This document shows, in pieces, positions 19,208-60,567 of a stretch of DNA of 64,000 bases. Both the position numbers and the translations under genes were made by a program. Below the pieces are notes generated by a model that worked only from the letters and a program-made list of their open reading frames with translations, was not told the DNA's origin and did not search any database. Origin of the DNA: Psammoneis japonica (taxonomy: Eukaryota); the NCBI GenBank assembly GCA_008632985.1, contig QPGO01000049.1, positions 62,001 through 126,000 on the forward strand. Reading direction: 5' to 3'. Position 1 is the stretch's first letter, and each line of letters begins with the position of its first letter.

Positions 19208-19407
19208 TTCGGACGATCAAGTCTCCGAGAATAAGCGAAGAGAAAAGGATGAGGATTAAACAATCATTTCAGGATGTGATGTGCAACTGCAGGTGAAGAC
19301 GCAGGTTGAAGGTCCTTCGCTTTGTAAACTTGTTGGCTTCGGTTTATTGCTCTTCGCACGGGTTTTGTGAGAAAACGGAAAACGAAGGGTCATCGAGGAA
19401 TGACTTA

Positions 19408-20738: not shown

Positions 20739-20741
20739 TTA

Positions 20742-36909: not shown

Positions 36910-39900
36910 TGCTCCCGTTTTGACTGATTGTCCAACGTGCGACGACTGCTGATGTCGAAAGCATTAACACCAGGCAGTGGCCCTGCTCATTTTCACGAGC
37001 TCCAATTTGCACAGAAGCCACGTGCTGGTTTCTGTGCATTTGTGCAAATTTTGTGCCAGTCGCGTCATTGGTGGGTGTTGTGCGCCGGCCCTGACGAAGT
37101 CTTTCTTGGGCACAAAATGTTTTTCATGTGCAGTGCTTTGGCGCAAATCTGCGCAACATTTTGCACAGGGTGTGCAGAACCACCAGGTGGTTCGTGTGCA
37201 TGAGCAGGGACACAGACAGCATGAGCAGCCATCATTCGAACCCAAACTTGCTCAGTCAGTTTGTGACAGCCCTGTGATTGGCAGCACTCGCAGTCGCAAA
37301 CCAGATGTTTGCATGGTGCAAAAAGATCCACCACCACACCATGTCAGTGTGGCTGAGCTTTTGTTTGGTGGATGTGATGTTGAAGACTTTGCTGCAGATT
37401 TTCTTGATTCAAATTTCTTCTGCTCGTTGTCAGCTCTTGCACCACCCAAATGGCGCACCAAAAATCCAAGAGCTTGCAAGGATGTGCTCAGGTCTCACAC
37501 TTTGGAGGAGATGAGACATTGCATTTCCTGCTTCTGTGATGATGATGTGCCAACCATTGTGCCTGAAATCCATTTTGATGAAGATGACAGAAAAGCAAAA
37601 TGCAGCCCAACCAATCTGACCAAGTTTGAGAACAGCCACTGGTTGTGAAGCACTTTGTGCAGTGCTGCCCAGTGCGCAAGATCACTGGAGCTCCTTTTGG
37701 TGTGTCACAACATTCAGCGAAGAGACATGTTGAAAAATGGGCACCATGGTGGGCCAAACATGGAGAATTTTTTTCACTCTCCCGATGCCCCCAAGGAAGT
37801 GCCAGATGAGTTTGCTGAAACACTGCTTGACTTGGTGGCTTTTCTTGGCAATGGAAAAGATGCTGCTGCAGACACAAAGCACAAAGATGATGATGCATGT
37901 TGCACACAACAAGCCAGCTCCAAAATGCATTGTTTGGCAACTTGGTTTTTGAACTTTGTCATGGTGCATGCACTCTTGTGTGAGCACACTCAGGTGCATG
38001 GGGCTCAACTGGACAAGAGCAAATTGGTGAAATTAGTTGGTGGGTGCAGAGAAGAGAAAATGCCAACACAACAGTGGAAAGATGACCATGCCATGCATGA
38101 CCCATGCTGCAGTGTGCTGAAACATTGGACAGCACTTGAAATTTTGGAAGTCAGGGATTTGCTCAACACTTTGGTTCTGTCAATTGTTGACAAAATGAAG
38201 TGAGATGGCAAGATGGAAAACAGCACAACCAACTGCACTGAGATGGAAGCTGTTGAACCTTCTCAACCATCTGAAAATGGCCTTGTCAACCACATGAGTG
38301 CACACAGCCAAAATGTTGAATGTTCTGATGAATCCAACAGCAACGACTCTTGGAGCACTGGTTGTGAGTCCAACTGGACAGACACAAGCAATGACTGGAG
38401 TGAAAAAGGCATTGAGACAATGTCCTCTGCAGAATCCAGCACCAACCGTGATGGTGAGAAGGTTTCAAAGTGTGAGCACATTTTTGTGAAGTGCAATGAA
38501 TGGCTCAATGAAAGAATTGGGGTTGTTGAAAAAGGAGAAAAGCTCAAAGATGCCACAGTTGATGAGGTTGCATCACTTGTCCATGAAGACCAAGCCTTGT
38601 TGAAGGCTTCAAATGAAAAGGTGGCACTGGCTTGCTCACTGCAAAATGATCTAGAGTCATTTGTTCAGAAACAGGGGCCATTTGAGAAACTCCACAGGCT
38701 GCACAACTCAAAGGCCATCTGGCAAAACATGGTGAGTGCCTGCTTTGAAATGACAAAAGATTGTTGCTGGGAACTTTTTTGCTGGATGAGAAGCAAACTG
38801 ACTCAACCAAACTGCAAAATGCATGACACAGAGTTGCATCCAGAAGTTCACTTGTGCCTGCACAAAACCCTGCCAAACAAAGAAGAGCTCAGTGACAAAG
38901 GTTTTGAGAAGACAGAGCACCATTTCTTTCCACATTTCAATTGAGTGCATGCACCTTGAGTCTTGCAACCATGAGCTGTCAAACAATGTGATGAGCTTGA
39001 ACTTGAAGACAGGAAGGACATTTACAGGGTGCAGCATTGAATGGAAGCATCTTTTTTTTCTTGGCTTGTTGCTGTGAATGGTCTCCACAGCAATGTCCCA
39101 TGCAAGAATCTTTGCATTGTTCCATGCATGTTGGAATGGGGGAATGTGGAAATGAACCTTGGCATTCAACTCCAATGGCCAGGGGCTGACAGTGGTCTTC
39201 CTGTTGTCTCTTGGGATTGAGAATTGAGCAACGGCTAAAAATTGGCATTTGTGTTTGCTTGTGACAAGTTGATCTGCATTGGGTCTTTCCTGTTGTTGCC
39301 ACTGCTGCACTTTGCCTTCTCTTGCACAGTCACAAGTTCAGTCAAAAATGGCACATTGTTGGTTGGAGACAGGGGCACTGTTCTTTCAAATGCATCTTGG
39401 TGAGCACAATGCTGCATTTGGCAGAAAATGAAAAGCGCTGTGAGAGTGTGCAAACACACACCTCATCCATTGCAGCATCTGCAGCATGAAATGGGGTGTG
39501 ACAGAAGTTGTTTGGTGTTGGCATCAAACCCCAAGTAAAGCATGCAGCCTTCCTGTGTCTTTGTTTGCTCCGCCAATTGCAGATTTGATGACACCACTTT
39601 TGTCTTCATGGATGGAATGCAACAGACTTTGAACAGCCAAACCAAATCATCTTCACCAAGTGTCTTGCAGATGCAAAGCTCTCTCACATCAACAAGAACA
39701 TGCCACATTGTGACCACAAAAGAAACCTCAACCCAGATTGTGCTCACTGCCTTTTTGGCAGAAATTTTCAAACAAGCTTGGTGGCACTGAATCAAGCTCT
39801 GAGACACAATCATGACAACAACCATGATCCCAACCCACAGCACTGCAGGTCAACACCACAACCTCATGAACCATCCACACCCCAATTTGCAGTGGGACTC

Positions 39901-42900
39901 TCCAGCTCTGGGACTCTTTTGTTGATCAATGTGAGTCTTCTCACAGCCAACTCCAATTCTGACCAGTCACCAGCAACAGGGCATTCAAGTCAAGTGGTTG
40001 CCCAACACTGCAACATGTCAATTTGCACACATGGAATGGGCATGGCTTCAAAGCCAAACTGAGCATGCAAAGGTGGGCATGGCTCCTTCCCAACAAATTG
40101 CTCATTCTTGAATGCATTGTGTGAAGGAGCCAAAAATTTCTTGCTCAATGGCTTGCCATTAAAAAAGGTCAGCTCTTTAAACTGCCGTGCCATCTGGCAA
40201 CAGCATTGGGGAGCAACTCAGTGGGGTTGAAGCCAATGATGCCTCCTCAAGACAAACCAGGATTGTCTCCTGCATTTCCTTCAAATGAATTCAGTGGAAC
40301 CAGATTGTTGCTGATGTCAAGGACTGGGCAGCGCATGAACAGCACTGCAGTCTTGTCAAAATTCTCCATGTGGCCCGCTGGGATCACAGCCCATTGAAAT
40401 GATCTCCAGACCAGTCTGTGCCAGCAGCAACCCTCAGAAGGATGCAGTCTGCTGAGCCAAGAAGATTTGCTGTTGCCATCCAGTGTTTGAAGAAGTCACA
40501 AGCACCAATGGGTCAATTGGTGGGCAACAGGTCCCTTTCGCACACTTTCCATGCAACACACTGTGCATCAACTTTAAAACAAACAACCTCAGCCCCTGGA
40601 ATGATGGCCTCACCACCCTCACATCACAACACCATCAATCAACCGTCTGCCTCTAATTTGACAAGTTGGTGCTTGGCCTTGTGCTGAGCACATTCACGCT
40701 GCACTCCGCTGCCAACCATCTGTTCTTTGACCACACAAGCAATGACATCTGGCAAAGGATTGCACAGATCTCTTGCTTTTTGCAATGTTTGGTGTTGGTC
40801 AACCTCAGCAATGATGTTGCCGGCTTTGCCTTTCTGATGGTGCTTGTCCATCCATGATCTTGTTGTTTTGTGCAGCCCTCCCCACACTCTTTCTTGGATG
40901 CCCTGCCCTGTCAAAAACACACACAGGAGACACCCAGCTGAGACAAGCTTGTTGTGCATGGACTCAATCACTGTCAACGAACTCTCTTTTTCCACTGGCC
41001 TCACAGCAAATGATTCAGACTGCACTTTGTTGACATTGCCAAGGGCTTTGACCCACAGGTCACCAGCTCCCATTGTTGATGTGTCAAGGTGTCATGGAGC
41101 AGTGATGTGCTGAAGCGCAGCATGGAGGCACACAAAAACAAGTTTTGGTTGTGGATGTCCCTCAAAAATTTTTGGTGCACAACATTTGCACCTGTGCTGC
41201 TGCTCACTGCTTGTGCCAACATGACAAAACAACATGACAGGTGCAAGCTGGTCACCATGACCGACAAATGCCACTTGCAGCAAGGTTGGTTCTTGGGCAG
41301 GGGGAGACACTTGACAAGGGAGCCACAACAACTTGTGGGGAAGGGTTGGGCTGCTGTGACCACTTGAGGGCAATGGTTTGATCAAATGGATCATGATGTT
41401 CAAGTGTTTGTTTTGACAGTTTTGTTTGGTGCTCAGTTTCCAATCATGGAGCATGTCACTCACAAGAAGAAAAAAGACATTTTGGCAAACAAATGTTTCT
41501 TGGTGCTGTTTGCAATTGTCTCTGTCATGCATGTGCCTTGAAAGTCCAGACAGAAGCAGGGGCGAGCATTGCGGATGTCCCCACATTGGAGTCAGTGCTT
41601 TGTTTTGACCATTCTGTTCACAGCTCACACATCCAGTCCTGCAATCACACCATGTGCCTTGCCACAGACAAGAGTGAAAAATCATTTTGTCAAACAAATG
41701 TTGCACAACATTTGTGCATCTCAGTCTTGTTGGAGCCTTCAAAGCTCTTCTGTGTGCAGCGAGAGCTTGGCACAAATGGAGAAAAACAAAGAACAGATGG
41801 CTCACACTGAACTTTGATGCCATCAAATGACAATGATCTTAAAAACAACAAAACAGCCACATCTCCCACTGGCCTGTGTGTGGGCAACACTGTTTTTCCC
41901 TTTGGGGGCTTCAAAATGGAGTCTCAACCAATCTCCATGCCAGCATCAAGATGCCAAAAACACCTTGGCAAGTCATGTGATCTTCTCCAGGATGCATCTC
42001 CCAGAACACTGACTGTGTTGATCAAATCCTCATGGTGCGTTGAACAGCCACTGTTGTTGTCAAATCCTTGGGGTTGCTGCCCAACTTTGTCAGGTCAGTT
42101 GCTTCAATCACAGCCAGCGCTGCTGCTCATGGTGCCTTCTCAGCAGAGGGTGAAATGAACAAAAGACCAGTCACAACTCCAGTGCACTTGTTCTGCAATG
42201 AATGCAAGAGACAGTGCTTTGCACAAAACCCCAGCTCTGGCAGACAATGCCAAAGATTTCCATGCAGCCAACAGCTTCAACACTTCTCATCAAGAGTGTG
42301 GTGATTGTTGCCTCACAACAAAGCAGACCTTGGTGGCACTCTTCATGTGGCTCACTCCATGGATTGCCTTGCATCTGCTCACACAAGTGAGGATGAATTG
42401 GACACCCATGGCAAAGTGGCTTTGAAAGGTGCAGCACCAGGTGTCATGGTGGAATCAAGCATGCCAGAGGAGGCAAATGCAAAAACAGAAGGATGTGTCA
42501 TGGAGAGCAAGGTGCACACCAGCGGCCCAAATCTCATTGTGTGGCCCATCCACAATGTTTTTGACATCTCAACGACATGCACAAGGAGTGGGCACCCTGT
42601 TGCAAAAAAGGGACATGAGCTTGATGTTGCAAAGGGGAACATGTGGTCCATTTTGCAGGGGCAACTTGTCCAGCTGGACGTGGTGGTGAGATTCAGAACA
42701 AAATGATTGGAATTAAAGTGAAGCATTTGTTGAGAAGGCAAAAGCAGTGCCCAAAGGGAGCTCCAAATGGCAGTGCAAATGCAGCAATGAACTGAGCAAA
42801 ATCAGGAAAGACATTGCCAGTGACCAAAAATTGGCGGAACCCATGGTGCTCCCCTGGAATGGTGCAGATGTGAAAACATGCATGTTGTGGAGTGTGGCAA

Positions 42901-45900
42901 GAATCTGCAAGGGATGCACTGTGTGACCATGAAGACATCCAAAGCCAAAGATGCCCAAAGTCATTCAAAAATTTGTGTGGATGTCCTTGGCACACATGGC
43001 CAGATGAAAAAAGAGACCACAAAGGGGGTTGCTTTGCTGTGTGCAGCAACAACCATTCATGGCATTGGAGACTGAGGAGCAGTCATCTTAACTTTCCTTG
43101 CAACATCTGATTGATGCTCACAACTGTTTTTTGCTGCAATGGCTGTGACTGATTGTCCATTTTTACAAGAGGAAGAACATTTCACATAAATTGGTTGGCA
43201 AGCTGGTCATCAAATGACCTTTTCAAAGAGTCTCTTGTCCTGGCAAGTCATGACCAGAGTTCTGCTTGCATTGGGAATGACCTTCAGTGCAGAGTGTTGA
43301 GCAGTTGAAGGGCACACCACTGTCCAATCCACTGCAATCTCATGTGACAAAAATGAAAACAATGTTTTCATGTCTCAATGTCTCAAATTGCTGTGCTGAT
43401 CTTTCATGATGTTTTCTCATTTGCTGGATGGCACTGAGGCCTTTCAAATTACCCAATTGCTCCACTGACATCAAGCCATGATGATGCCATTTTCATGCTG
43501 TTGTTTTGTGCACTCTAGTCTCCCACACAGGTTGACAAGTCAGACAGCCTTTTTTGCCCTTGCTTGCTGACTCTCGTGTGTCTCTGATGGAGCATCGGGC
43601 CTGCCTCAAGCTGGCTTTTGGGCACAATGTTTCATTGAACTCTCTGTCCAACACCTGCTTCCACCACTCATCCAGAGAGGCTGACACTGGCGCACACTCT
43701 GGTTCTTCAGTGGGCTGCAGTCTCTGGCTGGAAGAATGTTTCTTGGCTTTTTTCAGCTTGAAACCACAGCTCAGCTTCTGTCACAACCCTCGCCAACATG
43801 CTTTCTGGATTGTGCTTGCACAACATGCCAACCCCCTCAAAGCAGCTGCCATTTTTCTGCTCTCTTTTGTCCACCTTCAGTTGAACCAATGTGCCAGGTG
43901 AGATGGCCACACTTTTGTTGAACCTTGCTTTCATTTTTGGCGCCCCACTCTTGCCTCAGCCCCTGGCTTCTTTGTCACATCAAGCCTTCTTGTGTCTTCA
44001 GCTTTGATCTTCTGGGTTGTCAAGTGCATTGGAGGTTAGTGTGCCTCCATCAAGCTTCCAAATCTTGCAAGGGGGTGTGCCATTTGGAGCTGGCATGGGC
44101 CCCACATCCTTCATTTTTGTGATGGCTTGACATTTGCCAGCATTTCAACTTGGTCCAGCAACACAGCAAGCACTGTCTGCTCCAAACTTCTCTGCCATTC
44201 TGTCAACAAGTTGATCACATGCTGTCCTTTTTCTTTAGACTTGACACCCACATGCGTCTGCTGCAATTTGGCATCAGTGGATTTTGTGCCACTTGCACAA
44301 CTCCATGAAAATTGCTGGGCCCCTTTGTTCTCTTCTTGCTCCAAAGCTGCCATCAGGTCAAAACCTGGCATGTTCTCCCACTCCTCCAGCATTTCATCTT
44401 CCTCCTTCTCACTTGTGAAGCTGAGCCAGTCACCAGAGGATGTGAACACTGTGTTCCTCTGGAACCCCACCACAGCTCCTCTCCTCTGTTTTCCAGCCAT
44501 CGTTCCACACTTGAGCCTGATTTTGGATCCGATCCTGAGAAAATGCCCTTCAAGATTGTCCAAGGCATTGCAGAAGGGGGGCTGAGACAACTCACCATCT
44601 GTCTCTCTTGTTCTTCATTGATGACACTTTTCACATCATTGGGAATTTGTGCACATGATTTGTCTTCCATGTCAACAGCTGTCCTGCAAACTCTCCAGCA
44701 GAAGTGCAAGTCATTGCTTGGATTTTCAGCAACTCCCTGTGCTTTGTCATCACAGCCACTTGGCAACCATCTGGAGACATGACTTCAAGGACCATGGGCA
44801 AGCTTTCGGGTGAAAAAGGAAACTCCAAATTGAGGCACAAGCACAAGGTCCACAGCTGTTGTGCCATCATGCTGCTTTCACAGCAGCCTGCAACCCCAAC
44901 TCACTTTCCATGCTTTGCTGGAACCAAGCTGGTGGCAACATTTTGCTGGGGGGAGGCTTTTCTTGTGCCAAAACACATCTTGTTTGAGCACTGGGGCTTG
45001 CCAAGCCACACCATTTGAGAACAAACATTGCTTGGTCATTCAAAGTGCCCAGCTTGCAGTCAAAACCATCAAAAACTTCTCTGCAGCCTTTTTGGAGAGT
45101 GAAAACTTCAGAACCACATGAAGTCCAGACGGGCCTGCAACAAAAAGCAGCATTTTGACAGATGCTGGCAGATCCCATGGGTTTGTCCTCAATTCCTCCT
45201 CAAGATGAAAGAGTGGTGCTGTGGACCCAAACTGAGCATGAGAAAGTCTTGCATGGTCTGAGTGACCCTCACAAGCAATTGACCAGCAGAACAAGGACAC
45301 AAGCTTTGTGTCAAACCATCATTCTGTGGTTTTGTGGATGTGGGTCAAGCCATCATTGCAGCAGCTGATTGCAAACAGATGGCTGGAGATGCAGCACTTG
45401 CTGCACAGCAGCGCTGGATGAACACACTTGTGCCTTGTTCTGTCATGCATGATTGACTCATGGTGAGCTGTTTTGGACATGTCCCTGCCACGTTGGAGCA
45501 GAGACAGGGACCACAACTTGTTGGGGTCTGATGCACGCTGCTTCTTTGTTGCAAGGGGGTTTGTCTCCAGATCTGTCCCCTGCTTTGATGTCCCTGGCTC
45601 CTGCTCCTGCTCTGCCACTGCCTTTGTTGTCTGCACCCCTGGCTTTGTCAGCTTCATCTTTGTGGGCTCCACCTTGGCCCTTGCTTGGCTTTGGCTCCAG
45701 CTTTGTTTGCTTCAGCTTGGTGGGCTCTGCCTTGCTTGGCTTTGGCTCCAGATCAGTTTGTCTCAGCTGTGCTTGAGTTGTGGGTCTGGCTCCACTGGCT
45801 TGGGCTGTTTTGATTGGGTGGTTGGAGCATTCAACAGACCCCTGGTGCAGCGGCATTCTGGGCCCACCCTGGACAGTGTTGCTGCAGCATGGATTGAGCT

Positions 45901-47880
45901 CTTAGATGGCCTCAATCACTTCCTCTGCTGCTGTGAACTCCTTCCCATTGTCTGTGTGGCCAACAAGGGGGCAGCTGATCACAGAGCAAAAGTGGCAGAA
46001 CTCCTTTGCTTCATTTGTGGGAATGGCCACCATCCAGATCAACCCTGTGCAGTGATCTTTCAAACCACAAGCCACTTCATCAGCAGGGAGTTTGGGTCTT
46101 CTGGGTGGAGGTTTCAAGGGTCTTCTCCCACTCAGATCACTGCAGAAGCTTGGAGGCTTTTGTGGAAGCACAGTGCCATCAAAGTCTTTGTTCTCGTCAT
46201 TGAACACAGCCTTGTTGAAGGCTTCTCTGTGTTTGGTCTCCATGAAGATGCTCCTGACCTTCTCAGGAGAAGTTGTGGCAGTGGCGTTAAAGTGGGAGGG
46301 GTGGACGGCAACTGACATGGTGGCAAACGCAGCACAAAGAGACTCTTTCTGACTGAGAAACTCAACAGAACCACAACAAGACAGTTGCTGCAATGAAGCA
46401 AGCAACAGAGGCAGAGAGGGCAAGCTGGGGGAACCATTGAAAATCCATGATTTGCACAAGTCAGAACCCAGGCACTGGGTCTGATTGTCTGAAATCCATG
46501 TTCAAAAGATTCCATGCCACAGCTCCATGGAATCTTTTTTTGTGGAATCTTGGGTTCTAAAGAATTGTTGCAACATGCCCTTCTTGACAAACCATCTGCC
46601 ACACATTGCAAGACAATGCAAAAAAATCACAGGTTCTTGTCATGCAGCCTTTTTTTGTTTGTTTGCACTCAAAAGAGCACAGTGAAGAAATGACACACAT
46701 CATTTGTTCAACAGGTGGTGCTGATGGTTGGCTGCATCTTGATCCTTGACTCCACAGTGCTGAAGCAAATCAATGGAGTTGTCAGAAAACAAAATTTGGA
46801 AACATTTGCTTGTTGTGACAACCAAGAAAGAAAAACAGATGAGAGCACACAAATCGAAAAATTTGGCTCTTCTTTCTGACTCTTGGCACTCGGCTTAAGA
46901 GCACGACTGCACACCATGGTGCAGCAGGCTTCATCTGGGGGTGAGAAGATTTTGCAATGCTGTTCCTTCTTTTGTGGAGAACAGAATTCTGGTTTCTTAG
47001 AAATTTTTTTCTTCCCTCATCTTCATGTCCCCATTTTCTTCCATGACACTCTCTCATTCTGCCTTGGTTCAAACATTTTGCCAACATGCACATCATTGCA
47101 CATTGATTTGCATTGTCAAATCCAATGTGGTTGTTTGTTGTGAATGTGAAGAAAATGGAACCATGAGCAATTTTGTGCACCCAATGTTTGCAATGGTGTG
47201 ACAAACAACAGTCAGAGTCAATCCCCAAAAATTGTGGGTGCAGATTTTTTGCCAAACCTCAAAACAATGCGCAGCTGCGTCTTTTTGAAAATTTTTGTTT
47301 TTTTTTCCCAGACACACAACCTGACAATGAGACAACAGTGCTTCATCTAAACTGCTGCTGTGAATGATGCATGCCATTGCAAGTTTGCAACTGCTGTCGT
47401 CTGGACTTGTGGGGTCCTTTGTTTGCAAAAAGTGGTTCCGCACTCACAGAGAAATGCGTGGATTTGTCCAAATTCATTGGCTTGAAAACAGTGGTGCACA
47501 AACAAATTGATTGTCACCATTGTCAATGAGCACCACTTCACTCATCATTTGCATTGAATCTGTTGTTTGTTTGTGCAGAGAGTTGGGCATCACATGTTGG
47601 TTTGTCAGGATGTCAATTTTGTGGAGGCCAAATTGCATTGTCGGCAACTGTGAGTTGATGATGATTTTGTCAACAACAATGAGAAAGGCAATGAAACTTG
47701 TTGATTTGGGAGGCATTTGTTGTCACAATGATGTCAAGAAACAAGAAGCACTCTCATCATGAGGAGATGGATGGTTGGGGGGATGATGCATGTCTGCATG
47801 CCAAAGGTGCAAGCTCAACAGGGAACACTTTCAAGAAACGAATGAACTGCATGTCAACCATCCAAGTCGGGCCCTCTTTC
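36910..47880. mobile_element. Large degenerate TpA/CpG-depleted TE-derived block, mostly unclassified
   Basis: About 25 TA dinucleotides in 11 kb by eye; decayed Cys/His-rich ORFs on both strands; contains an integrase remnant. Confidence 0.6.
45830..46460 (-). pseudogene. rve/DDE integrase remnant of Ginger/KRBA2-like type
   Basis: LKDHCTG...GHTDNGKEF...(stop)...GGPRMPLHQGSVECSN matches the D, DNGxEF and GRPxxPxxQGSVE catalytic pattern. Confidence 0.65.
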
Positions 47881-47881
47881 T

Positions 47882-48279
47882 TGATGAAATGGCAGTTGGA
47901 AAAGCAAATGCAACCCAGCGACATTGTGTCATTGGGTGCAATGAACACACTTGTCAAAAGACACCCCAGCAAATGATGCAGTTGCTGGCCACACTTCACT
48001 GAAATGTGAACATTGCATCTGCACAAGTGTGGTCTCACACACACAAGCAAGGCGGGTGCATTCTCCTTTCATTCCACCTTGCTCTCAGCAACATTTCTTG
48101 CTCATTCCAACACATGTTGTTTCCAGTTTCCTTGGTGGATGTCACTTGCAAATCTCCTCCCCAACCACACACTTGTGGCAACAGATTTAGCAGGGATCAT
48201 CTTCAACTGTCAAGACAAACATGGATCATTGGACATTGCTGCAGATTTAGCTGATTGGAGTGCTCAAATTCCTCCAATG
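47882..48279 (-). repeat. 3' LTR of the older element
   Basis: Aligns, with indels, to 52552-52675 joined to 59789-60078. Confidence 0.7.
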
Positions 48280-51200
48280 CTCCCCTTGCTCCAAGGGAGG
48301 GGAATGTGCAGTTGTGGCACAGTGTGCATGTCCCATGGCAATGTGTTTGACCCTTCCTCAGTCACCAAGAGATGACACAAGATGCCAAGATCCTCCCAAC
48401 TTGGAACACATTTGCTTCAAGCTTGGGATTCTTGGTGAAAGCACTGACAATTCTTTCTTCAATGGCAAGGGCAGGTGTGGCAGAAGACTCATTGTCACTG
48501 GAGTTGCAGGATGCATGGTCAACACTGTCAGGGTCCATGGTTGATTTGGGGCTCTTGCATGGAAAATCAAGTTGGACAATGACATTCTTGGGTGCAAAAT
48601 GCGTGATGACACCTCCACCTTTTCCCTCATGAGTGCCTTTGATGAATGGCACATGCTTGCCAATCATCTTGAAGCTGTGATGCCTGTGTCCAAACAAAGG
48701 CAATTGGCAGATGAGCATGTTGTTGGGTGCAATGAAAAGCATTGATTGGGAACTTTTGTGAGAAGTGAGCAAAGTGCACTCAGAGCTGGATGCACAGTGC
48801 TGTCACATGGGATCATGCACATGAATGGAATGGTCAGCTTTTGCCAAACAAATGACAACCAACTGTCAAGGTTTGCTGACATGCATGCATGGATGCAACA
48901 CATGCAGCCTGCTGCAAGTGCCCACAATTTCAAAATTTCAAATGAATGCCAATGGACAGCAGAGCCCCTTGCTGGCAAGGACAACCATGACCATGCTGTT
49001 TTGTGTGGGTGAGTGGCGTGCCTTGCAAGGGTTGACAAAACAACTCATTGGGAATGCCATTGAGGAAGGCTGCATCAGCCAAGGGCTTCATTAAAATGTC
49101 ACTCATGTTGTTGCCAGCTGGAACATGGAAGAATTGAATGATCTCAGCTCTGTGCACACTTCTTGGATCATTGTCAGCATCATGGATGATGAGATCAGGC
49201 ATGGAACTGCCATCATCATGGTTGGTGCAGTTGACAGGAAATGTGACTGCATCTTTGTTGGTGCTGCAATCTGGTGCACAATCCCCCATGTGGCATGGTT
49301 GATGGAAACCCTTGATGCAACTGGCCCTGGATCAGGGTCTTGTGCATTGCTTGGCAAAAGTGTTCCACTGGGTTCCACACACCAGGCATGGTCATGTTGA
49401 TCAGGCTGAGGTCTCAAAAAGTTGCTTGTCTGTGGGTGACTGGTTTGTGACAGTCATGAGTGTTCCAAGTGTTCCATGTGTCAAGAAAGGGACCACAACT
49501 CCATTTGGTGTCATGAGCCATTGTGTTCGGCAGTGACCTCTCCTGTGCTGAGGTGGTGGTGGGCAACAGAGTCAACAATGCAACCTGCCTCTCACAACAC
49601 TGGCATTCCAACAATGAGACAAAAAGAAAGCTGCAGGGTTGGCTGTGCCTTTGTGCATTGACAGAGTCATGACTGAACCAACCACCAGGCAAGTCCACCA
49701 CAGTTGCACCACTGGTGATGTCCAGACCATCCATTCTTGTGCATGATTCATCAAAACCAATGAGGTTTGGATTGCATCTCATGTTGTCATGTGGGTGCCA
49801 ACCTGGGCCAAAGATGCCTGCATCAGCCCCACCATCTGAAATGAGCAGGGGTTGGTTGTCACGGGCACATCCCAACAGGGCTCAAGCTTCAAGGTGTGGC
49901 ATGCTGCCAATGATCAAACAAGTCATGTTGACAGATCAGAAGAGTCCCATGAGGTCTTGAGATGCCTCAAGGAGAGACCACGCCATTCCATCATGACTGC
50001 TGTCATCTGCACCAGTTGCAGATGCTGAGTGTCAATGGAAGAATCATCTGAAGGTTTGTTGTGTTCTGCAGTCTGGTTGGGCACAAACGCACATCTTTTG
50101 AGCTTGATCAATGGGACACTGCTTTGGTGAGGTGTGCTTGTTGTCCACACAGTTGTTTCTTTGTTCTTGCCAGCAACAAAATGGTCCACCAATTTGTCAC
50201 ATCATTGGAAGAGGAGGCTTTGTCTCTGTCAGGAACCAATTGCAGAGTTGCAGGTGGGACTTCACAACTGTCTGGGATGTCCATGCCTCTGCAAGTGTGA
50301 TGAGCAGCATTGACATGTGCACATCAACAATGGACTGAATGAAGCTGTCAACATCACCTTCCAAGCATGACAGTGCTTGTGCAGCCTTCTTGGCATGGCA
50401 GCTGCTTTGTTTTCTGTGTGGTCTTTGTTGCACAGGTGTGCCCATTTCCAAAGTTGGGTTGAGGTCCACTTGCAGGATGGGGAGTCATGCACACTGGGCA
50501 ATGGTGTCACATGTCAAGCAAGAGCACAGGTTGGCAAGCAGCCTTGACTTGCATGCTCCATCTGTCCACTGACATGCAGTGTGCACTGGTGTGTCCATGT
50601 GAACAGCACCCTTGATGTTGATTTGGTTGATCTTGGTGAAGGCAGTCTGGCATTGACAAATGCTGTGATGCCTCCAGTGCAGTGTTGATGGGAGCATCAC
50701 ACATTGATGGCATCCACCCAACTGAACTCAGCAAGTCAGAAGCACCTTCTCCTTTGTGATGCTCCAAAAACCACACCATGCCCTGAACCCATCCTTGTTT
50801 TTCTTGTGTGGTGTGTCTCAGGAATTGCTTGCCAACTCCTTTGTGGCATGCAGCAAACAATGCACTGTGCACACACTTGTGGTCCACATGGAGTTGAGCA
50901 AGGGGGCAACAATGATGGGTTGCAACTTGGGCATCATCTCCCCAAGACACAGTCACCATGTTCCTCACAGGCTTGTGGGGTGTCTGGATCCATTCACAAC
51001 CCACCTGTTGCATGATCCAATGTCCTCCTTTGAAGAGGGATTTGAAATTGGGGAAGGTTGCGTGATCCCCATCCCCCATGCAATCTTGATGAAAATGGGG
51101 TGTCACTTGTGCACATCATGGCAACATTCCTTGGATTGGCACATGCATGGGTTCCACAGGTGATGACAATGACCCATGTCAATGCATGAGAGGGCTGCAC

Positions 51201-52675
51201 TGTCCAAGTCAGGAGCTAAAAAGGCATCTCAATTGGGACATCCCCCCTGTTGCCATGATGTGATGCATCAAGTGACACAGTGTGGGGTGGTCATGCACCA
51301 TGATGAGTGGTGTGCACAGGTGTGGTGGGCCTCTGAAGGACATGCGGGGGACAAGTTGAGATGCATGTCAGTGAGAGGCTGAGTGTGTGGGTGGAGGGTC
51401 TGATGGTGGGGCTGTTGCAGGAGCAGTGGTGACAGCTGGTGTTGGTGCAGCACCAGAGGAGTTTTTGGTCAAGGCTGTGGCAGTTGCTGGTGTGTGTGGA
51501 TGCATCCACATGAGGGGCATTTGGGAGCACCTTGGCAGTGCTGGCAGTTGTGGGAGGTGTGGGATCCTTGTGGAGCTTGAGCCACTTGATGTTGAACAAG
51601 ATGTTGGCATCTTTTGCCATGCACAGCTAAACCTTCCTTGTCAAACAAAGAGACCAGGAAGTCACCTGCATCACCATGCATGAAATCTCTTGCACAGGTC
51701 CCAAGCAAACATGTGGGTGTGCATTGTGTCCACTCCAAGGTTCCTGAAGGGTTCACATCTGAGGATGTTGCACACTTTCAACAATGGGAGTTGGCAGAAG
51801 CCCACGAAGAGTTGGATGTTGGTGATGCAATGTTCGCGCAAGAACTGGGTGGTGTCAGCAGACAAGCATGGTTTGCGGGCTGGTGCCGTGAGAAATTCTT
51901 ACAGTGTGTCACTGGTTCTTGGCGCTGCACACACAAAAAGGCGGGTCATCAACATTGTCCTGGTTTGTGGTGGTTGTTTTGGCCTTCAAGTCATTCTTGG
52001 GGCACTTGCTTGAAGGGGGTTGGTGATGCAACATCTGCAAGCATGTGTCAGGGATGTGTCAGTGTTGCACAGCGTGTTTTGCAGTGTTTTCATCACTGGT
52101 CCCATGCTCTTGTGCCTGAGTGTTTTGCAGCATTGTGTTCACTGGTCACATTCTTGTGTTTCTTCAAGCCTCTGCAACCTCTGTCAGTGGTGCTTCTCAT
52201 GTCTGGCATGAACGTTGAGAGCCTGTCACAGGGGCACCAAGCTTTGGTGCTTGCAAAACACACTGTCAATTCAGCGTCCTCTGCCAAATCCACAAGAGGC
52301 AACATGGGCTCTCTCTGATTTTGTTCAATCCCTTGGGCAATTGCCAGTCACCTTGAAGACCTTCATGTGAGCACAGACCTCCTTGGGCTGCTCAACTTCC
52401 TCAGTTGTGCACCGGCAGGAGTGCTTCTGCCCCAGGCTCTTGACTCCTCGAATGTTCGTGCGGGGCTCTCGACTCGAATCTTCGTGCTAGATGCAATCTG
52501 GTCGCCAACAGAATCTCTTTCTCTCTGGCAGCTGAACAAAGCAATTGGCTGTGATGAAGTGGTGGCAGCCAGGAAAGCAAATGAGATCCAGTGGTGTTGC
52601 ATCATCGGGTGTGATGAAATGAACACACTGATCACAAAGGACACCCTGACGCAGCCACTGGGCACAATTTGCCAA

Positions 52676-52951
52676 TGACAGGATTTGAGCAGGATTTGGG
52701 TGCGCGCAAAATGTCGCGCGCTGTTTAGTTTGCCGCACACAGTTTTGTGTGCTTTAGTTCCGCGCGTTCGCGCGCGATGCAGTTTGCTTTCGAGCCACAA
52801 GGCTCACAAGAATAATGACAGTGGCCCGGTTGTGCCGACTCACACGTCTTTCGGCTCCTGTGACGGTCTCTGAGCGGAGATTCATCTGCCATTTAGACAG
52901 CAGTGAGGAGTCATTGTTTGAATTCTTGCCATTTGCCTTCATTTTCTGTCA
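52676..52951 (+). repeat. 5' LTR
   Basis: Gapless match to 59508-59783 with 22 mismatches by manual alignment. Confidence 0.95.
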
Positions 52952-53890
52952 GATTGACAGTCTTGCTCATTGTCAACCCATTGAGCAACCGCCATCATCG
53001 TCGTTGATTTACCAACGACGCCATTTCAATTCTGCGTGGACCTCCGCACATGATCTACATACATCGGCAAGTCTGCGCGCATTCAATGCCAGGGCATCGG
53101 CAGGAAGTTAACGTCACCGTCAAGTCTCCTTGCCACTGGATGTCTGGATTGATTGCACTGCCTTTGATCGCTGAAGACATGCATTCAACGGTCATGTCCA
53201 AGTCTGTCCTTGATCCTCATCCCTTGACACACCCACTCATCAGTTGACGGTCAAGAACCCCACACATTCAAGGATCTTCGTCGCTGAAGACACACACACA
53301 TGTGCGCATCTTCACGGCCAAGAACCTGCACCCACTCTTCGGACTGCGGTTTTGCTGCCACTCTGCAAGCACACCGAGTCCATTGTGCCTGATCCACCCT
53401 GGACTGCTGGTGCTCTGCAGTTCCACCAGGTCCACGAGGATGACTGTGAGAGCAAGCAGCCGTGATTGCAGCCTGCGTTGGGGCGAGGGTGCTTTCCCGC
53501 GTTTGTTCGTTCGTCCACAGCGCCCAACGCCTACGTCAACTGGCCAGCCTGATCGGGAAATCCAACCGACATAAAATGAGAACGGTTCGGGGGTCTTGTC
53601 CACCTCCAGTCAGCTCACCTGCAGGGGTTTGCAACCCGCTGCTCCGCTCGCAAGCAACCCAAAGCGCCGCTGGCTGCGGGTTCGGACGTGCCGGCACAAC
53701 TCTGCGGACCGGACAGGAAGTTTAGCACTTGGCAACGAACGGGGTGGCAAAGCCCGGCGACTTCTGATTTTAAGATAGATCAAGATTTCAAGTCAAGTCC
53801 ATTTCAAGTCAAGTCTGTTCTCACCCAAGCTTCAAGCCTGCCTTCGCTTCCCAACAAGAGTTGCTTGTCCTGACACCACTTTTGTCCACC

Positions 53891-56800
53891 ATGGTTCTCA
53901 CTCGTCAGCAACAAACCGATGGTTTCGAGCACGTTGTTGGAACCATGCTTGCCCAGGGTGCTGGGAGCCCTCTCCGTTTGGCTTTGGCACAAGACGGCAC
54001 GGACTCGCATCAGGAACTGTTCACGTTCATGCTGCCCCAAATCGACTCGCTTGAGTGCGACAACGGCACTGATGTGATCCCTTTGCCCCGTGGTTACAAG
54101 AACATGTTGGCAGCTCCAGTCAGTCTGTGCATTGTCAAAGCACACAAAGGTCTTGACGTTGCCAATGACTCCTCGTTGTTCACGCATGACGAGTTCCTTG
54201 CCTGCCGCCTCAGCCCCGACTGCATGTCTTCTGTGTCCATCGGCAGCTCACCCCTCGCACCTCCGCATGTCACCAACCCGACCAAGGCACGCGACCCGGT
54301 GCGGGACTTCAAGCGAGGCATCAAGCATGATCCCACCGCTTTCACGGCTCTCAAATCCGACAAGCAGTGGCACACTTGGCACACCTCACTTGTGGCACAA
54401 GCCCATGCCCAAGACGTCGAGTGCATTCTAGACTCGTCGTACAAACCGACCAGCCCCGAAGACAAACTGCTCTTTGCTGAACAGCAAAAGCACATGTTCG
54501 CTGTCTTCGAACGCATCCTTCTCACCGACAAGGGCAAGGCTCTCATCCGCGAAAATGTGGGGTCTTCTGATGCACAGACCGTCTGCCGCGCCTTGTCTGA
54601 GTGCGCGCTCGCCTCCACCCGTGCATCTGTCGAGTCCTCCACCCTGCTGACGCACCTCACCACCGCACGTCTTGGTGATGGTGCTTGGAAAGGTCCGACC
54701 CACGGGTTCATCCTTCATTGGCAAGATCAGTTGCACAAGTGCGAGGCACTCATCCCGGCCAGTGACCACTTCTCTGAAGGACAGAAGCGCGTCATGCTCG
54801 AGAATGCCGTGCACCCTGTCGAGGAACTCCGTGCTGTCAAGAACCAAGCTGATCAGCATCGTACGCAGAGTGGCAAGAGCCTCACATGCGATCAACACTG
54901 TGGCTTGCTCCTCTCCGCGGCAGCCCAATGCGACAGTGCGTTTCAACCCAAGACGACACCTCGAGCTCCCCGCCGCGCCATGTGTGCACACGACGTCTGC
55001 TCCGAGGAACCGTCCGACGATGTGTTCTACGACATTGACAGTGACATTGACGTCCTTCAGGCCAATGCTGCCTGCACCCGTGGTCCCAGCCTCACCGGTG
55101 ACCAATGGAAACGTCTCCCTCCCGACCACCAACGGATTTGGGATTCGTTGCCCCATTCCTCCAAGGCGATCATCCTTGAGCATTCTCGTCCGCCTCCCCG
55201 CAACCCGCGAAACAGCAACTGCCATGAGTCCGTTACGGCCAACCTTCACGACCAACGCCTTGGGAGTGACGGTGATGTCAACTTGTCCAACACGACTCCT
55301 GCTGACTCTGGTGACTCCGCTCCAAATGTGGGTGCCACTTCGGATGATCCCATCCTGGCGCGCCTCACCAAGCGCAAGCCACTGCCACCCGGTGATCTGC
55401 ACCGTCTGTTGTCTCCTAACCAAGCCCCCAATGCCAGTCGACCGGGGCCATCCGCCGCTCCCTCTACCCCGCCAGCTTCTGCCGATGACATGGAACTCAA
55501 CGGCCGCACTTGCCGCCGCGTTGACAACCACAATGTCATTTGCTCTGCCTCTGCTCATCGCTCCACACGCACTGGCGCTCTAGTTGATCTTGGGGCCAAC
55601 GGCGGCATTGCTGGCGACAACGTTCGCGTCATTGCACGCACCTCTCGCCAAGTCGACGTTCAGGGCATTGACGATCATCAATTGGTGGACATCCCTGTTG
55701 TCACCGCTGGTGCCGTCATTGAGACCCAGCGTGGTCCCGTCATCGCCATCCTCCATCAGTGCGCGTGCACGGGAAAGGGCAAGACCATCCATTCCTGCGG
55801 CCAGCTCGAATGGTGCAAACAGGATGTCAACGATCGCTCTGTCAAGGTGCCCAACGGCTTGCAACGTGTTGCCACTCCTGATGGCTGTGTCATCCCCATT
55901 GACATCAAGGCCGGCCTGCCTTGTGTTGCCATGCGACCTTACACTGACGCCGAATGGGACACCCTGCCCCATGTCATCCTCACCGGTGATGACACATGGG
56001 ATCCTTCCATCCTCGATCACTCTGTCACTGATGACGACCAGTGGTGCGACGCGATCTCTGACCCACAGGACGATCCCACTGCCAACCTGTTTGACGAATG
56101 CGGCAACTGCCGTCATCGTGTCGTTGTCAACGAGACCATCATGTCCGCTTCCTTGTCTGCCGATCACGCGTCCGCCCTCGATGATCACCTCATTCCGAAC
56201 GACGACGTGTTCTGCGAGTGTCATCTGCACGCGATTGACCCCAAGGACGACGACGTCCCGCCCCCGGAGCGCACTGCACAGCCCAAGGACCCGCCCTTCG
56301 AGTCTCTTCGGCCTTGCTTTGGCTTCCTACCCACCGACACGGTCCGTCGTACTTTTGACTGCACCACGCAGTGCGCCCGCATGCCCACCGGTACACACCT
56401 TAGGAAGGCCTACAAATCACCCAACCCCGCCCTTGATGTGCACCGCCGCAACGAGCCTGTCGCCACTGACGCCGTTCATGCCGACACCCCGGCCGTCGAC
56501 TCTGGTTGCACCAGTGCCCAACTGTTTGTTGGCACCGAGTCTGCCGTCACTGACGTCTACGGCACCAAGACGGACAAAGAGTTTGTCAACACACTCGAGG
56601 ATCAGATCCGTGAGCGTGGTGCCCCATCCAAACTCATTGGCGACCGTGCTCAAGTTGAGATCAGCAACAAAGTGCTCGGGATCCTGCGGGCCCTCTTCAT
56701 CTCCAGCTGGCAAAGTGAGCCTCACCAGCAACACCAAAACTTTGCCGAGCGTCGACACCAGACCGTGAAGCGCATGGCGAACACTGTCATGGATCGTTTT

Positions 56801-59560
56801 GGTTCGCCCGCCCACACATGGCTGCTGGCGCTCATGCATGTGTGCTTCATGCTCAACCACACAGCATCCCCACGTCTCCACTGGCGCACGCCCCTTGAGA
56901 CTCTCACTGGCTCCACCCCGGACATCAGCCCATTGCTTCACTTTCACTGGTGGGAACCCGTGTGCTTCCACCTCGATGACTCCGATTGGCCGTCCGAATC
57001 CCGTGAGTTGCGTGGACGCTTCGTTGGCATTGCTGAGCATGTCAGCCACCAGATGACCTTCAAGATTCTCTCTGACGAGACTCAGAAGATCCTCTGCCGG
57101 TCCAACATCCGCTCCGCTGCCACCGATCCTGCCGTTCGAAACCTGCGTCTTGATCCTCCTGATGGGGAGCCACCTGAACCCATCATCAAATCTCGCCATG
57201 ACGACAACCCCATCGATTCTCCTGATGGGGAGATCAGGACACCCAAGATGCCAGTTTTCGATCCGCAAGACATCATTGGACGCACCTTCCTCATGCAGCC
57301 ACAAGAGGACGGACAACGCCACAGAGCTCGCATCGTCAAGGCCGTCGAAGACCACGAATGGAAAGTGAACGGCAATCCCGAGCTCACTGAGTTCGTCTGC
57401 TCTGTCAACAACGACGAACACGAGGAAGTCCTTGCCTGCAATGACATCATGAATCACATTGAGCAAGAAGACGAAGACACTGCTGTTTGGAAATTTTGAT
57501 GCATCGTGTCACATGAAGGACCTCTGAAGCCTCACGACCCAACCTGGAAAGGCTCAAGCTACAACATCATGCTTGAATGGGAAAGTGGGGAGATCACGTC
57601 CGAGCCTCTTGCCATCATCGCCAAGGACGACCCCGTCACCTGCGCCATCTGTGCACGAGAGAACGGACTCCTCGACACGGATGGCTGGAAGCGGTTCCGC
57701 ACCATCGCGAGGCGCCAAAAGAAGCTGTTTCGCATGGCCAACCAAGCCAAGCTTCACTCCTTCTGCACTGCACCTTGCTGCAAGTGCGGATGCGAAGTTC
57801 CCCGGAACTGCAAACACGCCATGTCACTGGACGAACGCAACGGCAACCGCAAATGGGGAGACGCAACTAATCTCGAGATGGACCAACTCGACGAATGCGA
57901 AGTCTTCCATGACTGCGGGCCCTTCGAGTCTTCCACTCCTCCTGCGGGACACAAGAAGATCCGAGTGCACCCAGTGCACGACGTGAAACACGACGGTCGC
58001 CACAAGGCACGACTCGCAGCCGACGGGCACCTCACGGACGTGCCTGTCGACAGTGTCTGCTCCGGAGCAGTCTCCCTCCGTGGCCTTCGGCTGATGATTT
58101 TCCTGGCCGAACTCAACGAGTTGGAGACATGGGCCACCGACATTGGCAATGCCCACCTTGAAGCCACCACCAAGGAGAAGCTTTACATTGCAGCCGGACC
58201 CGAATTTGGCAAACTCGAAGGACACATCCTTGTCATCCACAAGGCCCTGCATGGACTGCGCAGCTCCGGTCTCCGCTGGCACGAGCACTTCGCCGACTGC
58301 CTGCGAGCTGAAGGCTTCTTCCCCTGCCGCACCGAACCCAACATTTGGATGCGCAGGAACGGCGACCACCATGAACACATTGCCATTTATGTGGATGACC
58401 TCGCCATTGCCATGAAGGACCCTCAATCTTTCGTCGATGCTCTCACGGAAAAGCACAAGTTCAAGCTCAAGGGTGCGGGACCCATTGAGTTCCATCTGGG
58501 TTGCGACTTTTCCCGGGATCCCGACGGAACCTTGTGCCTGTCTCCGCGCAAGCACATCGAGCGCATGGTTGACAGCTGCGCCCGACTGTTTGGGGAGAAA
58601 CCTGCCACCAACGCCCTGTCACCTCTGGAGAAGGGTGACCACCCCGAACTGGACACTTCCGAACTGCTGGGACCCGATGGCATTCACAAGTTCCAGTCTC
58701 TTGTTGGTTCACTCCAATGGGCAGTGTCCCTTGGTCGAATTGACATTGCCACGGCCGTCATGTCACTCTCTAGCTTCCGAGCTGCGCCCCGTCAAGGCCA
58801 CTTGGATCGTGCCAAACGCGTCTGTGGGTGCCTCTCCAAGATGCGACACGGTGCTCTCCGCGTTCGCAAGGAAGAGCCCGACTGTTCGGATCTCCCTGCC
58901 CCGGCCTGTGAATGGATGCATTCCGTGTGCGGCGAAGCAGAAGAGATGATCCCGAAGGACGCTCCACCACCCCTTGGCAAGTTCGTCACTGCCACCCACT
59001 ACGTCGATGCAAACTTGTGCCATTGCATGCTCACCGGACGCTCTGTCATGGGAATGCTCCACTTCCTCAACAAATTCCCGGCTGATTGGTTCTCTAAGAA
59101 GCAAGCCACCACAGAGACTGCGACCTGCGGGTCTGAATTTGTTGCTGCAAGGACTTGTGTCAAGCAGATTGTTGACCTGCGCATCACCCTGCACTGCCTT
59201 GGCATCCCGATCCGTAATGTCAGTTGCATGTTCGGTGACAACAAGTCGGTTGTAGACAGTGCCACCATCCCGCACTCCAAGTTACACAAGCGACACACTG
59301 CACTGTCGTTCTGCCGTGTGCGTGAGGCAATTGCCTCTGGTTGCCTTGAGTTCCACTTCATCGAAGGCTCCCGCAACCCTGCTGACATCCTCAGCAAGCA
59401 TTGGGGTCACTCCCAAATCTGGGACCTTCTCCGCCCCCTCATGTTCTGGAGCTTCATTTCATCCAAAGTCGAATCTGTTTCTGTGACTCCTCAAGCAAAC
59501 TGGGGAGTGACAGGATTTGAACAGGATTTGGGTGCGTGCGAAATGTCGCGCGCTGTTTAG
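53891..59560 (+). pseudogene. Copia gag-pol polyprotein pseudogene (in-frame TGA at 57497, many Tyr->His/Cys substitutions)
   Basis: Gag DFKRGIK; protease VDLGANGG; integrase SEPHQQHQNFAE; RT KHDGRHKARL and YVDD; RNase H GSEF, FGDN, NPADILSK. Both ORFs are in the same frame across the stop. Confidence 0.9.
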
Positions 59561-59783
59561 TTTGCCGCGCACAGTTTTGTGTGCTTCAGCTCCGCGCGTT
59601 CGTGCGCGATGCAGCTTGCTTTCGAGCCACAAGGCTCACAAGAACAATGACAGCAGCCCGATTGTGCTGACTTGCACGTCTTTCGGCTCCTGCAACGGTC
59701 TCTGAGCGGAGACTCATCTGCTGTTTAGACAGCAGTGAGGAGTTGTTGTTTGAATTCTTGCCATTTGCCTTCATTTTCTGTCA
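59508..59783 (+). repeat. 3' LTR
   Basis: Preceded by PPT GGGGAG and followed by TSD GCCAA. Confidence 0.95.
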
Positions 59784-60567
59784 GCCAAACACAAACATTG
59801 CACCTGCACGAGATGTGGTCTCACACACATGAGCCAGGTGAAGTGCATCCTCCTTTCACTCCACCTTGCTCTCAACAATGTTTGTTCACTCGTTTCAACA
59901 CTTTCATTGGTGGGTGTCATTTGCAAATCTCCCCCCCCCCCCCAACACAGACTTCCTGTGGCGGCCACAGATTTTTTTTTTTAGCCAGGATCATCTTCAA
60001 CTGCCAAGACAAACTTCACAGTTCATCAGACATGTCTGCAGATTCGACTTGTTGAAGCACTCAGAGATTCCTCCAACATGAGACGCATCGATCAAAGCAG
60101 GGCCCCGCCATCCAAGTGGAACACATTGCACGCAACTACCTCTAGAGCAAGGCGGGGACCGAATCCCGAATCCCGAATCCCAAGGATTTCTATCCTTTTT
60201 AGGAACTAGGCTATTCAAACAATACCATACAAAAACACAAAGCTTAACTATTTCTATCGACACCTATTTTCGTATTCTAAAATTCTGACACATGGAGGAA
60301 GCGCTGTCGTGTCGGCGGCGGTGTCTTTCCCGTAGAAATCGTACGAGTCGCCACGTAGAAACGCGTCAGTCGCAATCCGTTTCTCGCAACTCTGCAGAAA
60401 TATTTTTTTTGTATGTATCGTTGTTGTTGAGGTTGTTTTTATGACACCTCTTGTTGTTCTGTTTTGAGTTTCATGGTCTTGGAATAAAAGAAATTGAATT
60501 GTCGGTGTGGTTTGTTTGAATAAGCAAGCCGTTCTCAACGGCTTGTTGAATTGATTGATTTTTGAAT

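Follow-up and report, generated by a model that had tools for sequence, protein, structure and literature searches.

The stretch of DNA analysed here, referred to below as the window, is a 64,000-nucleotide piece of a chromosome of the pennate diatom Psammoneis japonica (GenBank assembly GCA_008632985.1, contig QPGO01000049.1, positions 62,001 to 126,000 of the forward strand). It contains a recently inserted Ty1/copia retrotransposon whose two long terminal repeats (LTRs) differ by transitions. In this element, and in blocks of decayed repeat DNA in the same window, the dinucleotide TA (TpA) has been changed to TG or CA, and it is this change and its probable origin that are described here. 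The parts of the element are as follows, in window coordinates; the two target-site duplications (TSDs) are the same pentamer found directly outside each LTR.

52671-52675, plus strand: left TSD, GCCAA
52676-52951, plus strand: 5′ LTR, 276 bp, TG...CA, with TG at 52822 and 52861, CA at 52841, 52890 and 52912, and TA kept at 52755 and 52813
53774-59560, plus strand: gag-pol, a single frame of 1929 codons whose sole break is the TGA at 57497-57499, extending into the 3′ LTR
57941-58573, plus strand: reverse transcriptase domain (RVT_2, Ty1/copia type), residues 147-357 of the 57503-59557 translation
59508-59783, plus strand: 3′ LTR, 276 bp, 22 transitions away from the 5′ LTR, with T at 59668
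59784-59788, plus strand: right TSD, GCCAA

The element has features of the Ty1/copia type: direct LTRs of the form TG...CA, a 5-bp TSD and a polypurine tract, CTGGGGAG, which abuts the 3′ LTR on its upstream side. A repeat search of the window returned one such long direct pair (52676-52952 and 59508-59784, 92% identity, spacing 6832). The family assignment comes from a Pfam match to RVT_2 (E = 2.1e-24; 86.9 bits, where the cut-off is 31.6). The Pfam integrase was not found in 53774-57496 at E values up to 5, and the unmutated homologue P0013 likewise gave RVT_2 alone; alignments of homologues to the element start at 55898 and run onward. No second copia copy was found within the window by tblastn with 120 homologues. 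Since the 5-bp TSD is perfect, the element represents a single insertion event.

When the LTRs are compared base by base, the 276 aligned bases contain 22 mismatches and zero gaps, and 22 of 22 mismatches are transitions. An earlier reading, made from the letters alone (the sequence-only reading), had given the same tally, with every class and position exact. Five of the differences are swaps, with TG in one LTR opposite CA in the other (52822/3, 52841/2, 52861/2, 52890/1 and 52912/3); two sites have TA opposite CA (52755 and 52813); five have CG opposite TG or CA (52705, 52708, 52737, 52771 and 52836); and five are other transitions (52689, 52758, 52783, 52829 and 52881). The orientation of the swaps is mixed, the 5′ LTR having TG at two and CA at three of the five sites, so that each LTR carries both outcomes, as expected from the earlier claim that both strands were changed. 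Counted as pyrimidine-purine (YR) steps, the pair comprises 24 TG/TG, 17 CA/CA, 17 CG/CG, five CA/TG, three CG/TG, two CA/CG, two TA/TA and two CA/TA sites.

This pattern is not produced by chance. Observing 22 transitions out of 22 has P = 1.3e-4 if two-thirds of changes are transitions, or 0.053 if the share is 87.5%. When 22 changes were placed at random 200,000 times, at least five adjacent pairs on TG/CA arose with a frequency of 5e-6, and 17 of the 22 mismatches lie within YR steps, which make up 144 of the 276 positions (P = 0.011).

The direction of change can be read from the encoded protein. A search for relatives gave 1922 among 7999 scored candidates, and the best 120 of these (52-67% identical) were aligned with the translation of 55598-59557; a column was taken as conserved if at least 70% of the homologues have the same residue. 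Among the 589 conserved columns, 508 are unchanged in the studied copy. Tyrosine (Tyr) is kept at only 4 of 29 conserved columns (3 of 23 in the reverse transcriptase part alone) and has been replaced by cysteine (Cys) at 13, all of them TGY codons, by histidine (His) at nine (CAY), by phenylalanine at two and by tryptophan at one. Other residues with A/T-containing codons are held: phenylalanine at 22 of 23 columns, asparagine at 16 of 19, lysine at 28 of 33 and isoleucine at 24 of 29. Arginine (Arg) is held at 41 of 44 columns; of 42 Arg codons of the CGN type, 39 survive and three have become CAC (His). Because Tyr codons have become TGY or CAY while other residues were kept, the change is from TA to TG or CA; it is highly specific for TpA, and the loss of CpG is small. 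Both strands are affected, with no bias between the 13 Cys and nine His outcomes (P = 0.52). The sequence-only reading had argued that Tyr codons favour TA as the starting state; with 4 of 29 conserved Tyr left and 22 of 29 now TGY or CAY, that argument is sound.

In the element as a whole, the observed/expected ratio (O/E) is 0.12 for TA, 0.88 for CG, 1.37 for CA and 1.53 for TG, and the GC content is 57%; in the surrounding genic DNA, TA O/E is about 0.55-0.6, CG O/E about 1.0 and GC content 47%. The number of TAs per 500 bp drops from ~20 outside to 0-5 within the element and the repeat blocks, and the change is limited to these. The 41 TAs left in the element mostly follow a pyrimidine, and ATA/TAT is nearly gone. 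A loss of roughly 79% of TA against 7-12% of CG corresponds to a ~13-fold ratio of rates.

Rates of this kind can be applied to the ancestry of the five swaps. The LTRs have 17 intact and five singly changed CpG sites, which gives a per-LTR CpG hit rate of 0.12; from this rate, 0.16 CG-derived swaps are expected, compared to five seen (Poisson P(≥5) = 8e-7). If the swaps are instead assigned to TA, the per-LTR TA hit rate becomes 0.76, matching the 76-79% loss of Tyr. In a site model, a TA ancestor beats a CG ancestor by 10.8 log-likelihood units, and from this model we infer that the five swap sites were originally TA.

Other copies of the family were compared using reads from four runs, all from one study and one sample that may be the assembly's own source; assembled Logan contigs were aligned to the window at 85% likeness. 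The family is very abundant: run X1 alone has 14,228 contigs, and summed depth reaches 55,000-166,000 in the interior of the element, whereas the flanks have ~60. In run X1, the differing places between copies divide into 376 transitions and 56 transversions. From 442 differing places, 40 were listed; the 35 within the element were analysed and the five in the left flank dropped. At 14 of the 35, the studied copy has CA or TG where TA is found elsewhere, with a share of 0.29-0.97, and one pair of places is a CA/TG swap between copies. As with the two LTRs, the copies have been changed independently of each other. Another eight places have TG or CA in the studied copy and CG elsewhere, six of them at a share of at least 0.93, and nine are other changes, including two transversions.

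Among the 35 analysed places, CG is seen as the family state at 59668 and at seven internal sites. Position 59668, the sole LTR site among the 40 listed places, is T in the studied copy and C in 98% of the depth of other copies, which identifies the difference at 52836/59668 as CpG decay. The five LTR sites with CG opposite TG or CA are ordinary CpG decay, a source that the sequence-only reading had allowed for and with which the CG state at 59668 agrees. Likewise, one contig from run X2 has CGA CGC in place of the TGA TGC of the studied copy, and thus the only stop in the element (TGA 57497-57499) is a CpG to TpG change. One contig from another copy ends with GATGTAGT where each LTR has GATGCAGT.

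A few A→G or T→C changes of the studied copy fall outside TpA. Those at 53236, 53732, 53744, 54035 and 56471 are private to the studied copy when compared with at least 93% of other-copy depth; among the listed places, there are five such changes versus two private non-CpG G→A or C→T changes (53533 and 59459). They may reflect a weak off-context activity of the process that acts on TpA.

Further copies were also sought in other collections. An IUPAC pattern of the LTR with degenerate YR steps had 0 matches in viral contigs and 0 in metagenome contigs, and a protein-guided search for loci found none in viral contigs and one in the metagenome contigs. This metagenome locus, L001, was rejected as a member of the family since it is only 53% identical and belongs to another family. 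The top-scoring homologue, P0001, was also rejected; it represents a different family with its Tyr codons intact.

Besides the element, the window contains three blocks in which TA and CG are nearly absent. The blocks were recognised by composition. An older pair of repeats, one copy of which was divided by the copia insertion, was found with a purine/pyrimidine-coded seed search followed by transition-tolerant alignment.

1-2000, no strand: third TA/CG-poor block, continuing past the left end of the window
6000-10450 (start about 6000), no strand: second TA/CG-free block
36970-52675, no strand: block of decayed repeat DNA nearly without TA and CG; TA O/E 0.02-0.04, CG O/E 0.05-0.17, CA+TG O/E 1.8-2.1
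47882-48280, plus strand: older repeat copy A, heavily mutated, paralogous to the site of the copia insertion
52552-60079, plus strand: older repeat copy B (52552-52675 plus 59789-60079), divided by the copia insertion

Across all three blocks, TA O/E is 0.02-0.06, CG O/E 0.05-0.2 and CA+TG O/E 1.8-2.1. The borders are sharp for TA, at 36965 (the last TA before the block) and 60137, and for CG there is a fade across 500-1000 bp. In the alignment of older copies A and B, 299 columns are identical, 66 hold transitions, 13 transversions and 58 gaps, and there are 86 YR sites: 39 CA/CA, 24 TG/TG, 14 CA/TG, four CG/TG, three CA/CG, one TA/TA and one CG/TA. As TA or CG accounts for 40% of normal YR steps here, ~20% swaps would be expected if both were saturated, and 14 of 86 are seen. 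The sharp-edged blocks without TA and CG, together with the older repeat pair, indicate that a chromosomal, domain-wide process exists.

At the block edges (36970-37500, 10130-10450, 51500-52675 and 59784-60137), TA is gone and CG is partly there, making the TA-free zone 0.5-1 kb wider; either the TA process reaches further or the edges are younger. No tandem array was found at the left block border. When 147 open reading frames (ORFs) of at least 80 amino acids from the three blocks were searched with Pfam, none scored above the curated cut-off, and three sub-threshold matches had E values of 0.002-0.003. Counted on both strands, the blocks (37000-52675, 1-2000 and 6000-10450) contain 1.2 TAA and 0.6 TAG per kb, compared to 9.3 and 9.0 in normal DNA. 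Because these triplets are nearly absent, the six frames are crowded with long ORFs, in which gene finders would make spurious calls.

Run X1 Logan contigs with a word depth of ~60 span the TA/CG-free region 44000-52705 as three pieces, which deviate from it by 0, 1 and 5 letters; the piece with 5 differences is 5174 nt long. Since the run comes from the one sample that possibly gave rise to the assembly, this is not independent support for the sequence.

Traces of a similar change are present in two environmental relatives. In P0057, the 24 covered columns of conserved Tyr include 12 Tyr, six Cys and five His, and in P0118 the 23 covered columns include 16 Tyr, four Cys and two His; the median share of Tyr among homologues at these columns is 0.92. 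The changed columns in P0057 and P0118 are other than those of the studied copy, and some are Cys in one and His in the other. Judged from these protein sequences, the traces suggest that other hosts or families undergo this hypermutation too, and as a weaker form of the Tyr to Cys/His trend they make it probable that the process is not confined to the studied genome. The metagenome locus L001 mentioned above, a 4027-bp contig carrying a copia relative with 53% protein identity, has a CG O/E of 0.01 and a normal TA O/E of 0.49. Complete loss of CpG without loss of TpA shows that the two processes are separable.

The LTR pair serves as a built-in before/after control for timing. Seven TA-type sites (the five swaps and the two TA/CA sites) differ between LTRs that lie inside an intact TSD. 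Such TA-type discordance places the events after cDNA (complementary DNA) synthesis, which upholds the case of the sequence-only reading against RNA editing prior to reverse transcription. Its interpretation as a whole is supported: each LTR was hit independently and after cDNA synthesis, most probably also after integration. Because the TSD is intact and older repeat copy A supplies a paralogous empty site, recombination between elements does not explain the LTR differences. A deaminase acting on single-stranded cDNA was considered and rejected; it predicts one orientation of swaps, and the observed split is 2 versus 3.

We think it probable that the element has been subject to a repeat-confined mutation of TpA to TpG or CpA at the level of DNA, after cDNA synthesis and most probably after integration, alongside a slower decay of CpG. 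In this scenario, a Ty1/copia element would have inserted recently, creating its TSD, and a process confined to repeats would have acted on the DNA to produce A:T→G:C transitions at TpA, whichever the strand. The two LTRs, and the individual genomic copies, would have been struck independently, so that an ancestral TA could become TG in one LTR and CA in the other, giving a swap. In the same domains, presumably methylated CpG would decay more slowly, in the ordinary manner, to TpG or CpA, and both processes together would push every palindromic YR step in old repeats to CA or TG. Action on chromosomal DNA is suggested by analogy with the de novo signature in mutation-accumulation lines of the alga Bigelowiella natans (Mettrop et al., bioRxiv 10.64898/2026.01.13.699255). 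The chemistry would be a deamination of adenine to inosine, which is read as G, and chromatin or small RNA would direct it to its targets.

Several points weigh against this scenario. The TA ancestry of the swaps is deduced from a homogeneous-rate model rather than read from other LTR copies of the family, and the fit of TA is moderate (2:2:5 observed versus 0.7:4.6:3.7 expected), which could be explained by refractory contexts, as both retained TAs are in TTTAG. Direct polarisation was obtained for one LTR site, 59668, and that is a CpG site; at two of the 35 analysed places (53533 and 53776) it is the studied copy that has TA and all or most others that have TG or CA. The LTR pair would look alike whether double-stranded cDNA was edited before integration or the chromosome mutated, and gene conversion from other, differently mutated copies could import LTR differences. 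All of the read evidence comes from one sample, possibly the assembly's own data, and any enzyme, base modification or targeting signal is hypothetical.

Among the alternatives, ordinary decay of methylated CpG is the one with an undoubted presence in the studied copy: besides the five LTR sites, with 59668 polarised to CG, it accounts for the eight of 35 analysed places with CG elsewhere and for the three of 42 CGN Arg codons that became CAC, and the old neighbouring repeats are nearly stripped of CG. That it also made the swaps, with an ancestral CG turned into TG in one LTR and CA in the other, is nevertheless very improbable. Within the element it is slight (CG O/E 0.88, with 17 CG/CG LTR sites kept), it falls far short of five swaps in both the Poisson expectation (0.16, P(≥5) = 8e-7) and the site model (10.8 units worse), and it can yield neither the Cys or His that replaces 22 of the 29 conserved Tyr nor the TA found in other copies. 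A somewhat better case, still an improbable one, can be made for ADAR-like editing of sense and antisense RNA, or editing of cDNA before integration, followed by gene conversion or cDNA recombination through which differently edited copies made the LTRs differ. That ADAR prefers a 5′ U/T, as the authors of the B. natans preprint point out (bioRxiv 10.64898/2026.01.13.699255), agrees with the context seen here. Conversion donors are supplied by the abundance of the family, and changes common to both LTRs cannot be dated. Against this stand the seven TA-type LTR differences with their mixed strand orientation, given that a single-stranded cDNA model predicts one orientation, and the TA-free state of sharp-edged blocks and an older repeat pair that are not copia at all. 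In addition, the host is a diatom, whereas ADAR proper is known as a metazoan enzyme. In B. natans, the corresponding signature arises in single-copy chromosomal DNA, as described in the main text of the preprint (bioRxiv 10.64898/2026.01.13.699255).

The process could also act on DNA with a chemistry other than adenine deamination: a modified T or A, specific to repeats and located at TpA, might mispair or be mis-repaired to give T→C or A→G. This is a doubtful option that still deserves some weight. Self-complementarity, which TA shares with CG, would allow a mark to be kept up on both strands, the losses of TA and CG share domains, and there is an analogy in 5-methylcytosine (5mC), which renders CpG mutable. 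There is no sign of any modification here, however, TA is missing over a wider zone than the one poor in CG, and the two losses have different kinetics (the ~13-fold ratio of rates). The authors of the B. natans study favour an ADAT2-like deaminase in their main text, also without proof (bioRxiv 10.64898/2026.01.13.699255). Finally, if bases in repeats were modified and miscalled as TG or CA, the whole pattern could be an artefact of sequencing or assembly, and a domain-specific, near-complete effect would fit a systematic miscall at modified motifs. We find this scarcely credible: the TA/CG-free DNA reappears in the ~60-fold Logan contigs as long pieces free of branches, where a mark on both strands should have led to mixed TG, CA, TA and CG calls and branching; TA persists in particular contexts; and independent environmental relatives have a partial Tyr→Cys/His change.

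The closest precedent for a repeat-confined TpA process is that of B. natans. In the main text of the preprint by Mettrop et al. (bioRxiv 10.64898/2026.01.13.699255), mutation-accumulation lines yielded 302 nuclear single-nucleotide mutations, 231 of them in two integrated viral regions. A→G or T→C made up 230 of these 231: 210 of the 211 in the region from a nucleocytoplasmic large DNA virus (NCLDV) and all 20 in the virophage region. The AT→GC changes occurred at TpA, at ~6e-7 per site per generation, in some lines only; TpA-poor coding sequences were enriched for reverse transcriptase and DDE domains; and an ADAT2-like DNA adenine deaminase was proposed, which is unproven. Set beside that account, the window has in common the change at TpA to TpG or CpA depending on strand, the limitation to foreign or selfish DNA beside normally mutating host DNA, and a long-term depletion of TpA with a gain of CpA+TpG. 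The differences are that the host is a diatom (Stramenopila) rather than a chlorarachniophyte (Rhizaria), and that the target is an abundant LTR retrotransposon plus decayed repeats rather than a single-copy giant-virus or virophage insert. Depletion here is near saturation (TA O/E 0.02-0.12 versus a Rho of 0.45 in B. natans), CpG loss accompanies TpA loss in the old blocks, unlike in the B. natans account, and the evidence is comparative (LTR pair, copies and homologues) rather than from de novo mutations.

The words ‘diatom’, ‘CpG’, ‘LTR’ and ‘retrotransposon’ are absent from the main text of the preprint, its supplements aside. Our literature searches found no report of TpA hypermutation in diatoms and a TpA-specific process only in that preprint, the remaining results being fungal repeat-induced point mutation (RIP) or unrelated; in a term search, the words hypermutation, deamination and dinucleotide were absent from Maumus et al. 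2009 (PMC2806351). The TpA signature described here is thus a diatom case of a process so far reported only from one other alga, B. natans.

Fungal RIP is similar in that it acts on DNA, makes only transitions in a dinucleotide context and on both strands, and affects repeats with sharp or slightly leaky borders; it also drives copies apart and inflates their apparent age. Its direction is the opposite, C:G→T:A, typically CpA→TpA, creating AT-rich DNA and stop codons. Here, TpA→CpA/TpG raises GC (to 57%) and removes TAA and TAG. Editing of retroelements by ADAR or APOBEC3 resembles the present case in its deaminase-type, context-dependent transitions that become fixed in copies, and the 5′ U/T preference fits ADAR. 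Both ADAR hyperediting and APOBEC3 act before integration, so that both LTRs share the edits, and APOBEC marks one strand (G→A). The LTRs here are discordant, both strands have been changed with A→G and T→C dominating rather than strand-specific G→A, and repeats that are not retroelements are affected as well. Methyl-CpG decay of silenced transposons explains why CG stands opposite TG or CA at five LTR sites, how CGA became the TGA stop and why the old blocks are free of CG. It cannot give TA→TG/CA, and within the element the TpA process outpaces it roughly 13-fold.

The existence of a second, distant lineage with TpA→TpG/CpA change would turn what was a single-species curiosity into a candidate for a general genome defence of marine algae, and genetic tools exist for some diatom species. 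A broader proposal, possible but tentative, is that TpA hypermutation is a conserved, domain-targeted DNA-editing defence of diatoms and chlorarachniophytes, perhaps widespread in the Stramenopila-Alveolata-Rhizaria group (SAR). Such a ‘reverse RIP’ would diverge copies below the threshold for recombination and, combined with cytosine deamination, possibly by one deaminase for A and C, would convert all palindromic YR steps to CA or TG. If true, Tyr codons and TAA/TAG stops would be erased rather than stops created. The TpA process lifts GC locally, counter to the usual mutation bias toward AT.

There are practical consequences for annotation. Dating by LTR divergence and repeat landscapes based on Kimura distances overestimate age in such genomes. 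The sequence-only reading had warned of this for LTR dating, which is indeed invalid for this element: 17 of the 22 differences fall on hypermutable YR steps, with neither transversions nor indels among them. Hypermutated DNA is also poor in TAA and TAG, rich in spurious long ORFs and hard to recognise by homology, all of which can mislead the annotation of genes and repeats.

Elsewhere in the window, an intron-free ORF of 1184 amino acids on the minus strand (29702-33253) fuses DUF1800 and DUF1501, which are bacterial-type domains, and has many diatom homologues; the best named relatives of the protein are from Pseudo-nitzschia, Fragilaria, Nitzschia and Seminavis (44-51% identity). Three tandem 156-bp units occur at 3737-4204, inside an ORF of 1113 amino acids with Peptidase_M64 and PT-repeat matches, and diverged direct and inverted repeats at ~19400-21330 (including 20793-21263) lie in DNA of normal composition.

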